Shown one piece after another: positions 34,808 to 37,619 of a stretch of 64,000 nt of DNA (the first letter of the stretch is position 1; every line of letters begins with the position of its first letter). The DNA comes from Selaginella moellendorffii. Taxonomy: Eukaryota > Plantae > Lycopodiophyta. Made by a program: the position numbers and the translations under genes. Location of the stretch: the NCBI RefSeq assembly GCF_000143415.4, contig NW_003314341.1, positions 708,394 to 772,393 on the forward strand, in the 5' to 3' direction. Below the pieces are notes generated by a model that saw only the letters and a program-made list of their open reading frames with translations, was not told where the DNA came from and did not search any database.

Positions 34808-37619
34808 TTAATTGAACTTTGCATAAGTACATAGAGTTCTGCCTTGCAGAAATTCCTCCACTAGATGTCGCGCGTTTGCTAGGTTTTCCTCCGGTTCCCA
34901 TGTCGCCTCACAGTGTGGAAATCCTTTCCACTTCACATGGAACTCTCTCACCTCGCGTCCTTGTTGCTTGCTCTTGCGTGCATTGAGGATGGCCTCGACT
35001 TCGTATTCCTTTTCCCCTTGGATAACCTCAGGTAAAGGTCTCACTTGGTCCTTGCGAAGCGGATCCTCAAAGTACGGCTTGAGTAAGTTCATGTGGAACA
35101 CTGGGTGCATCTTCCCCATCTCTCGAGGAAGTCAGAGACGGTAAGCCACTTTACCGATTCGTGCCTCAATCTTGTAAGGCTCCGCGAACCTGCTTAAGAA
35201 ACTCAAGATCAATTCATTTACAGGAATACATGCATTTTTACCTTTGGGTCAACTTTCGGCTGATCCCACTTGGTAGCCTGAGGTTCTTGGTGTTCAGCCA
35301 CACCTACTCCTCAGCTTGGAACTCTACATCCTGACACTTTTGGTTCACGTACTTGGTTTGCCTTTGTTGAGCTCATTCCAAGGAATCCCTCACTAGATTC
35401 CAGATGTTGAGTCTTTCCACCGTGAATGCCTCCACTGCAGGTAATCTCCATGATACTCGGCCACACCGAGTTCCACAGGACCTTCAATAGCTCACCCATT
35501 GATGACTTCCCATGGACTCACCCCGATACTCGAATGTGGTGAGTTGTTATAACACATTTCCGCAAGTCCCAAATGACTTACCCAATCGGTCTAGTCTCCC
35601 GAGACATAGCTGTAAGGAACCGACTCCCTGAGATGTCGTAGGTTAAAGGATCCCCGAAAGCTTGACCGAAATGACAAAGAGTTCATCAGATGGGACCGAG
35701 TCGAAGATCGAGTCCAAGACCGACTCTAAGACCGAGTTCGAGATAGAGTCCGGGATTGAGACGAGGCCGAATCGGAGACCGAGATCGAGACCGAGTTCGA
35801 GACCGAGTTCGAGGCAGAGTCCGAGATCCAAATCGGATCCGAGACCGAGTCTGAGGTCAAGTCCGAAGTCGAGTCCGAGATCGGGTTCGAGATCGAGTCC
35901 GAGATCGAGTTCGAGACCGAGTCCGAAGTCGGGTCCAAGATCGAATCCGAGATCGATTCTGAGACTAAGTCCACATACTAATACAGCTCAAGGGGTGAAA
36001 GCCCAAAGCGTGTGTCTCCCAAGGGGGAGGGGGCTGCAGGGGGTTCCAAAAGTATAGTAGGGATAGTGAGGTCCAGGAACTAGTCTTGAATGAACTCTCT
36101 AGTAGTGCTTCCAAACTGACTTGAGGTTGAGACTGGGGCCGAGGGGCCTTGGGTGGGAGTGAGCATGGGCTTGGGTGGTGCCGGAGGGGCCACCCAGGGA
36201 AGTGCTCAAGAGCAGCTCCCACTCCCGAAAGGGAAACCGACTGCAGTGCTCCCGGCTCATGTGGAGTGGTGCCCCACTTGAGTACCTTGTGGCTCATTGG
36301 TCCTCGCCCTTCCTAGGGTCTTGGGCCTTCCCTTCGGGATGGAAGAGGGGGGGTAGAGGTACCCATACCGGGCCGTTAGGCCACGGTGTTTCGCTCCGAT
36401 GTCCCGAAGCAAGTGTTGCACCCAAGGCTTGGGATTTAGAGGGTCCCATGATCAAGTCTTGTTGTACCAAAGGGTGTTAGGAACCTGGAGGCTTGGTGTG
36501 CTTGGCTGCTTGTGCCTGCGGGGAGTGTAGCCGAACCTTAAGTCCAGTCTAACCCGGGGAGGGGGATTGGGAGAGATTTGGGAATCCGTGGATTGAAGGC
36601 TAACTCTCCGTTGCTCATGCAGTGAGTAGCTGAAACCAAGTAGGACCAAGTAGGAGCTGGTACAATAAGCGAGAACCTTGGCGAGGGAACTTAGCACAAG
36701 CCAAGGCAATGTTGGTCGGATAGACGAGGTAAGCTGGCAAATTGGAAAGGAAAAATTTGTGGCTTACAATAGCATCGCAAATAATCCTCCAGCTGCCTAT
36801 TCACCCTTTCCGTTTGTCCATTTGTCAAGAAGTATTAGTGCCATCCAACTTGACTTAATACCCCATACCTGTCTGTGGGTGGTAAGCTGTGTTGAATTTC
36901 AACTTGGTGCGATACTGTTTTAGGAGAGTTCTCCAGAACCTACTAGTGAAGATCTTATCTCGATCTGAGATAATCTCTTCTGGCCTTCCTTGCACTCGAA
37001 CCACTTGTTCAAAGAACAGCTTTGCCACACCTTCCGCATCCACTTCCGTTGTGGTGGGTATGAAATATGCCATCTTCAAAAATCGGTCCACCACCATGAA
37101 TATCGCATCGAACCCCTCGCTTGGGGGGAGTCCCGTGATGAAGTCCATCGTAAGACATTTCCATGGACGATCTGGAATTGGGATGCTTTGCAACAAACCC
37201 CCACTAGCCTTAGTCACGGCTTTTACCTGCTGACATGTTGGACATGTCTTTACATAGTCTTGGACGTCCTTAGCCATATCTGGCCAGTGATACTTCCTTT
37301 TGAGTAAGCCCATCGTTTTGGGCACTCCGCTGTGTCCCGCAAGAGGTCCATCATGACACTCTTCTAAGGCTACCTTCCTTAGTTCCCCTTCTGGGACATA
37401 CACCCTCGTTTGCTTATAACAGATGAGTCTCTTGCATTCTGTATCGCCCGTTTTCTCTTCCGTTGGCAGCTCACCTCTCTGGTGAGCTTCCCGTACCTCT
37501 AGATTCCTTAGCAACACTTTTTGTGTTAGACCATCGTTCTCATATGTTGTCCGCACATCGTCCCAAAAGGTTGTTGTTGCACTAGATATCACCAACTTTA
37601 AGCTCGCTTTTCGACTTAG
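34808..37619 (-). pseudogene. Family A integrase plus chromodomain, with two intron-like insertions and a solo LTR
   Basis: ECHDGPLAGHSG...CPTCQ, TMDFITGLP, ISDRD, AYHPQT|DGQTERVN, KLTQR|FAEPYKI, HPVFH, EYEVEAIL...FHVKWKGFPHCEATWEPEENL. Confidence 0.9.
35611..36768 (+). mobile_element. Family A solo LTR inserted antisense into the family A integrase
   Basis: TGTAAGG...GCTTACA termini; TSD ATAGC. The integrase reads through as DYLRCY|VSGD when it is removed. Confidence 0.92.

Follow-up and report, generated by a model that had tools for sequence, protein, structure and literature searches.

Two short introns in the integrase of a chromovirus family of Selaginella moellendorffii

Introduction

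Loss of an intron on transposition is the classic proof that an element moves through an RNA intermediate. A 2025 review, as far as its available text goes, describes plant LTR elements as generally free of introns, with Ogre and EVADE as the exceptions (PMC12786077). Ogre, a Ty3/gypsy element of the Tat lineage, has an intron of about 274 bp between GAG-PROT and RT that is removed; in the excerpts available, this genomic intron survives replication and the full polyprotein needs splicing of a subset of the transcripts (PMC6317226, PMC4408406). The Ty1-copia elements BARE1 and EVD keep a short, host-adapted intron in their DNA (PMC3735527, PMC5580714). For BARE1, the accessible part of the report gives a 104-nt intron and a spliced, capped RNA without the R region, of which no DNA form was found, and it describes translated and packaged RNA pools that are kept apart (PMC3735527). 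Essential products are also made from spliced RNA, while the genome stays unspliced, in foamy viruses, with their spliced pol mRNA, and in ASLV, with its exclusion of spliced RNA (PMC3705302, in the portion available); the CERV product of Cer1 likewise comes from spliced RNA, according to the excerpt at hand (PMC10309623). In the accessible text on Penelope-like elements, spliceosomal introns survive retrotransposition and one Selaginella family has an inferred intron (PMC8557442).

Here we describe a chromovirus family in S. moellendorffii with two short introns inside the integrase. The copy that led to it lies in a window of 64 kb, by which we mean the whole stretch of DNA that was analysed. 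Like Ogre, the family would combine genomic introns that survive replication with a dependence of the full product on splicing, but the introns found are inside the integrase, whereas that of Ogre lies between GAG-PROT and RT. The logic that pol needs splicing while the genome is unspliced is already known from Ogre; what appears to be new is the presence of two micro-introns inside the integrase. The family resembles BARE1 and EVD in its short, host-adapted introns, whereas the consequence of splicing would be reversed: in those elements, as far as the sources extend, splicing destroys pol and leaves a Gag-only mRNA, the unspliced RNA encoding the whole polyprotein, while here the unspliced RNA would lack an active integrase (PMC3735527, PMC5580714). 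Foamy viruses, ASLV and Cer1 use large subgenomic splices or make an accessory protein in the accounts available (PMC3705302, PMC10309623), in contrast to micro-introns in an enzyme domain. Penelope-like elements differ in having no LTR/integrase cycle, and their introns are described as lying mostly in the 5' UTR or the N-terminal part (PMC8557442, in part). No intron inside a Ty3/gypsy integrase was found in the literature outside subscription journals, Repbase, the Selaginella genome supplements and the large REXdb files. The available text of five further sources (PMC12130899, PMC13148404, PMC5718144, PMC6673714 and PMC2533021) added nothing beyond Ogre.

Results

The element and its surroundings

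The element spans 47851 to 31455 on the minus strand, and its flanks AGCCT and AGCCC match at 4 of 5 positions as a target duplication (Table 1). Gag-PR-RT-RH-IN between LTRs, a primer binding site (PBS), a polypurine tract (PPT) and the target duplication make it a Ty3/gypsy LTR retrotransposon, and a GPY/F-SH3 region followed by a chromodomain at the C-terminus of the integrase makes it a chromovirus. Its LTRs, PBS and target duplication are also the marks that insertion by an integrase leaves. The chromodomain (about 34847-35005; PF00385, E 5.8e-17) has Y, W and F at the cage positions when aligned to CDYL/HP1 chromodomains; the PF24626 match is a fragment below the curated cut-off. Domesticated integrase genes and Ginger-like DNA transposons are marked by loss of RT and LTRs and by low copy number or terminal inverted repeats. 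Both were ruled out by the RT, the RNase H, the LTRs and the thousands of contigs described below.

The initial annotation had correctly recognized a chromovirus integrase with an intron but had overlooked that this copy is dead: its frame has stops and is shifted once, the stretch from gag into protease is deleted, and other elements have inserted into it. As to an Ogre-type intron between the GAG-PROT and RT frames, the gag-protease junction is missing from this copy, no intron is seen in the RT-RNase H part, and the introns found are in the integrase. The nested gag-only element (37625-43399, plus strand) is young, has the primer site TGGCGACCAC, shows no pol and likely represents a non-autonomous family. 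A scrambled second copy of the intron-bearing family at 7475-9400 (protease, 3' region, PPT and LTR pieces, in both orientations) is uninformative on introns because it lacks the integrase.

Table 1. Features of the intron-bearing element and of the insertions within it
Feature	Position	Strand	Remarks
3' LTR	31455..32625	-	1171 bp, 95.7% identical to 5' LTR; AGCCC after LTR
Polypurine-tract-like stretch	32626..32639	-	ahead of 3' LTR
Integrase exon 3	34808..35189	-	rest of GPY/F-SH3 (Pfam PF24626) and chromodomain (PF00385)
Intron B	35190..35241	-	52 nt, GT..AG, phase 2, inside GPY/F (SH3_Tf2-1) region
Integrase exon 2, second part	35242..35610	-	stops and one frameshift in window copy
Solo LTR, own family	35611..36768	+	inside exon 2, opposite orientation; duplication ATAGC (5 bp); 94-95% identity with the LTRs of the element
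Integrase exon 2, first part	36769..36821	-	catalytic E, 35 residues after second D
Intron A	36822..36868	-	47 nt, phase 1, GT donor; splits HPQT-D/GQTERVN before catalytic E
Integrase exon 1	36869..37624	-	H2C2 zinc finger PF17921 and rve core PF00665, first two catalytic D
Nested gag-only LTR element, other family	37625..43399	+	inserted between RNase H and integrase; pair of 420-bp LTRs with 98.6% identity; CGCAT duplicated
Protease remnant, RT and RNase H	43400..45040	-	one frame, few stops, no intron seen
Gag	45041..45665	-	3' part deleted along with protease start (versus second copy at 8640-9400)
Primer binding site	45710..45721	-	TGGTATCGGAGC, presumably tRNA-iMet type
5' LTR	45725..47851	-	about 1140 bp, TG..CA; nested repeat 46084-47070 inside; AGCCT before LTR

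Elsewhere in the window, another gypsy element, which has an additional RNase H, lies at 18667-24573 on the minus strand; its order (gag, PR, aRH, RT, RH, IN) is presumably that of TatI/TatII, and its integrase has the YYPECNGQAE motif unbroken and no intron. It is surrounded by 1067-bp inverted repeats (16062-17128 and 28330-29393, 98.7% identical), perhaps the result of an inversion between LTRs or a feature of the assembly, and beside them lies an abutting 185-bp direct repeat (17129-17313 and 25927-26111). Degenerate hexamer arrays of the CGAGTC/AGATCG type occur in the LTRs of at least two families (35697-35964, about 26200-28200, 33000-33600 and 47500-47770). The host genes comprise a DnaJ gene at about 3900-4700 (minus strand) and a compact block at 50215-64000 with PP2C, two PPR genes and a KDM5/JmjC gene that has about 30 introns near 52 nt. 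For the PP2C, S. moellendorffii is the sole named relative with E below 1e-60 (62%).

Among lycophyte chromoviruses, Galadriel, the chromo-unclass group and SM-Tcn1 share the chromodomain and the 5-bp duplication with this element, and the available text on them mentions no intron (PMC6317226, PMC2864245). A tRNA-Met PBS is given for 90% of Galadriel and 78% of chromo-unclass elements (PMC6317226, in part). SM-Tcn1 is described in the accessible excerpts as having 440-bp LTRs, one pol frame and no PBS, the Tcn1 clade being self-priming (PMC2864245, PMC6317226); the element in the window is not SM-Tcn1 because it has a Met-type PBS and 1.15-kb LTRs. The features of Galadriel are present (tRNA-Met PBS, 4-5 bp duplication, chromodomain) and are partly common to chromo-unclass, so that by PBS and duplication the element appears to fit Galadriel or the unclassified lycophyte chromoviruses. 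In a FastTree phylogeny of the element with 61 relatives, a tree without labelled clade references, the element sat unplaced on a long branch with a support of 0.15.

Two introns interrupt the integrase

The minus strand at 35241-35190 reads GTAAAAA...TTAAGCAG, and excision of these 52 nt joins the flanks into SRKLTQRFAEPYKIEARIGKVAY (KLTQR-FAEPYKI), the GPY/F region, where integrase relatives read KL-x-x-RY-x-GPY. Retention of intron B leads to a stop directly at the donor (KLTQR and then a stop). The GC content is 0.31 within the intron and 0.47-0.50 in the coding parts on either side. By chance, GT..AG ends occur in 9 of 2826 stretches of 52 nt in the region, or 0.3% per insert. The branch motif of intron B is weak in the window copy. 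The 52-nt GT-AG insert at 35190..35241 had been reported in the initial annotation, and our analysis agrees with it in sequence, coordinates, length, AG/GT...CAG/G ends and restored reading. Its description as AT-rich and of host intron size is likewise borne out by the composition and by the host genes: the DnaJ introns measure 52 and 56 nt (the latter counted by eye), and in a crude spliced-frame search the KDM5 gene had 30 introns with a median of 52 nt, 25 of them between 45 and 56 nt.

Where the initial annotation had seen one intron in the integrase, a second of 47 nt (36822-36868) had been overlooked. Intron A lies within the integrase core, shortly ahead of the catalytic E of the D,D(35)E triad (AYHPQT-D/GQTERVN), and only across its junction are the second catalytic D and the E exactly 35 residues apart. 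Its retention leads to a stop within five codons (HPQTGMGY and then a stop). In the window copy, intron A has a branch-like CACTAAT motif and ends in AA instead of AG. This AA is a private decay of the copy because 96% of the depth in the DNA sequencing run X1 has the AG acceptor; the CTAAC branch is present in 98%. At the donor (36864-36865) and in mid-intron (36848), subfamilies differ at 47-83% of DNA depth, with GT, branch and AG near-fixed; splicing efficiency may differ among these subfamilies.

Both introns have the features of spliceosomal (U2-type) introns, namely a GT donor, an AG acceptor (AA for intron A in the window copy), a branch motif, and host size and composition. The further features of this intron type, exact removal in RNA and absence of that removal from DNA, were found on contigs only, from runs whose RNA status is a guess. 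RNA folding over either intron was unremarkable (z -0.8 and -1.0). An introner, an intron-generating transposon, would leave several similar introns at unrelated sites; no similarity beyond 16 nt was found between the two introns or between either and the remainder of the 64-kb window. The short repeats AGGT and GACAG at the ends of the introns were considered as insertion scars and set aside, being mostly splice consensus.

Among 387 fetched integrase relatives, 296 have HPQx-DG unbroken, 15 differ, and in 76 the motif is missing. None has a retained-intron ending, because all five with HPQTG continue with GQ[TS]E. The protein searches gave no relative above about 57% identity (best about 50-57%), none ending at intron A, and no close intronless relative among the 387 proteins. 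A degenerate search pattern that placed an intron at HPQT-DG, with one codon form of the start, had no match in viral contigs; three metagenome matches were all unrelated and due to chance.

The introns are kept in DNA

DNA run X1 gave 8182 contigs on 34830-35607, the intron B region, and 4670 on 36770-37200, the intron A region. Over intron B, depth sums to 772k and 882k, inside the 222k-1211k of the other 28 bins; over intron A it is the lowest of its stretch (214k-560k, other bins 283k-1403k) but continuous. Contigs diverged by up to 13% span intron B with the insert, and contigs 81-85% alike (up to 19% diverged) span intron A with 0-1 gaps. None of the 14 joints listed in the intron B region is the 52-nt skip, and none of the 5 listed in the intron A region is the 47-nt skip. 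The depth of 18 of these 19 joints is 109-262, which looks like the single-copy level; private deletions are visible in X1, since 13 of the 14 joints around intron B were detected at this depth, although a junction path linking very deep contigs might be lost in clean-up. Restriction of the insert to the window copy, named as refuting in the initial annotation, is thus not what was found: diverged DNA contigs have the insert, and no joint of precise loss is listed. This evidence of retention comes from one run, possibly the window's own source, and from contigs, which may drop rare variants. Dividing depth by 31 and by about 130 gives a floor of more than 100 family copies, a rough guide only, as summed contig depth is no copy number.

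The introns are removed in probable RNA

A spliced intron B junction (CCCAAAG/GTTCGCG in the window copy), whose absence from RNA the initial annotation had named as refuting, is present in run X15 (probable RNA, study P2): a 734-nt contig of depth 7.3 skips exactly 35190-35241, with CT..AC ends and 255 letters on the short side of the skip. It belongs to another copy because 39 letters differ, and it runs from the second part of exon 2 directly into 36770-36803, past the site of the solo LTR. A 194-nt contig of the same run skips exactly 36822-36868, and one contig of X17 (probable RNA, study P4) has the same exact intron A skip. The intron A skip was therefore seen in 2 of 3 probable-RNA contig runs (X15 and X17, two studies) and the intron B skip in 1 of 1 (X15), where the RNA status of X15-X17 is a guess, each junction is one contig per run at depth 3-9, the contigs carry neither strand nor level, and the A and B skips are on separate records. 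A contig of X16 (depth 59, with a chimeric 255-nt loose end) retains intron A. With 31 M letters, X15 has 2 and 3 contigs on the two stretches versus thousands in X1, which is what a transcriptome should give. Raw RNA runs X22 and X23, of which 12% each was read, gave 5 and 2 reads, too few for a conclusion; some lay partly over intron B and no joint was listed.

The 734-nt contig carries an in-frame stop of its own, so the spliced RNA of X15 came from a defective copy; it therefore indicates working splice signals and not a working integrase. We conclude that both introns are spliced and family-wide, and we hold with high confidence that they are real.

Variation in the spliced reading frame

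The variants listed were 40 of 144 in the intron B region and 40 of 41 in the intron A region; 78 of these 80 were used (8 intronic, 70 coding), two with almost no DNA support being dropped. Because the variants are linked and DNA depth is not copy frequency, the synonymous statistics are indicative only. Among the variants listed, 18 of 20 at mid-frequency (15-85% of DNA depth) are synonymous when the frame is read after splicing, including 9 of 10 downstream of intron A, compared with an expectation of about 1/3 for transitions. Rare variants are synonymous in 10 of 14 cases among those listed, and changes private to the window copy in 15 of 36, listed stops included. Read from sequence, the synonymous pattern says that the replicating lineages probably needed the spliced product.

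Discussion

The retention of both introns in DNA, their exact skips in probable RNA and the 18 of 20 synonymous mid-frequency variants therefore most likely reflect a replicating family whose integrase depends on splicing. We consider it probable that this chromovirus family keeps two introns in its DNA, replicates from unspliced RNA and makes its integrase from doubly spliced mRNA. The unspliced RNA would serve as the genome and would encode Gag, protease, RT, RNase H and an integrase ending before the catalytic E. Removal of intron A alone would yield an integrase without the GPY/F tail and the chromodomain, and the whole integrase would come from the doubly spliced RNA only. The need for splicing had been stated in the initial annotation, which held that full integrase with chromodomain can be made only from spliced mRNA; this stands, but the statement was too narrow, because there are two introns and retention of intron A costs the third catalytic residue and not just the tail.

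From the absence of a skip among the 19 DNA joints, we infer that the unspliced RNA is the species that is packaged and reverse-transcribed. The spliced RNA would be barred from reverse transcription, because an intronless autonomous copy would otherwise take over. As to the bar itself, we tentatively prefer two RNA pools as in barley BARE1, with a spliced message that could not be reverse-transcribed. A signal for packaging or replication that lies within the introns or spans them is less likely than this and as probable as selection against intronless progeny, each being a minority possibility. The LTRs of the window element contain no TATA[AT]A and thus no canonical TATA pair. The two-pool step is a preference without sequence support, since there is no TATA pair and the introns have no special fold. 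It is somewhat favoured, by a modest degree of belief, that the two micro-introns work as an integrase switch, in which the genome RNA never gives active enzyme, the spliced mRNA is barred from reverse transcription, and retention of intron B can drop the chromatin-targeting tail.

The most serious competing explanation, although an unlikely one, is that spliced RNA is reverse-transcribed too and that the intronless copies were missed, the intron-bearing ones being an older majority. Contigs show presence and not absence, one DNA run was used, depth is low over intron A, and an intron put into yeast Ty was lost on transposition, according to the available text of a review (PMC12786077). However, none of the 19 other DNA joints listed, 18 of them at depth 109-262, is a precise loss, and the inserts are kept in contigs 81% to 99% identical, which therefore argues for retention through a long divergence. 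Quite improbable, in our view, is that the intron-bearing family is a non-autonomous passenger, whose unspliced RNA is moved in trans by a partner element without introns and whose splicing is an incidental effect of host-like signals. Such a passenger would agree with the defects of the window copy and of the copy spliced in X15, no spliced message having been seen intact, and partner elements below 80% identity would fall outside the contig mapping. Against it, 9 of the 10 mid-frequency variants past intron A are synonymous in a frame that exists only after splicing, the AG acceptor and the CTAAC branch are near-fixed in DNA depth, and the 387 proteins include no close intronless relative, the best identities being about 50-57%.

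Spread at the DNA level, by which introns gained once in a resident or domesticated copy would have multiplied by duplication or inside another transposon and never via RNA, might be suspected from a region in which rearranged repeats are nested in one another and a further, scrambled copy of the family lies at about 7500-9400. We regard it as highly improbable: the copy with the introns comes with an LTR pair, a PBS, a PPT-like tract and a 4/5 target duplication of its own, the family's solo LTR has a separate perfect duplication, and a synonymous bias between subfamilies is unexpected for neutral duplicates. Almost no credence can be given to the idea that AT-rich sequence was inserted by chance, or that the assembly went wrong, in a single dead copy. 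The decay of this copy and the missing AG of its intron A speak for it, but the inserts are family-wide in DNA, they are skipped exactly in probable-RNA contigs of two studies (if these runs are RNA), and chance would supply GT..AG ends at the low rate given above.

The preferred reading, a replicating family with a splicing-dependent integrase, would mean that a family with two ordinary 50-nt introns in an essential enzyme has to tell spliced and unspliced RNA apart nearly without error, although they differ by fewer than 100 bases. If true, the integrase micro-intron switch would be an undescribed expression strategy of LTR retrotransposons that has persisted while sequences diverged by at least 19%. 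All copies of an intron-bearing family like this would be classed as broken by annotation tools. As two small natural markers, the introns would make the choice between genome RNA and message directly testable. They may also offer a route by which host splicing controls the dose and the targeting of the integrase.
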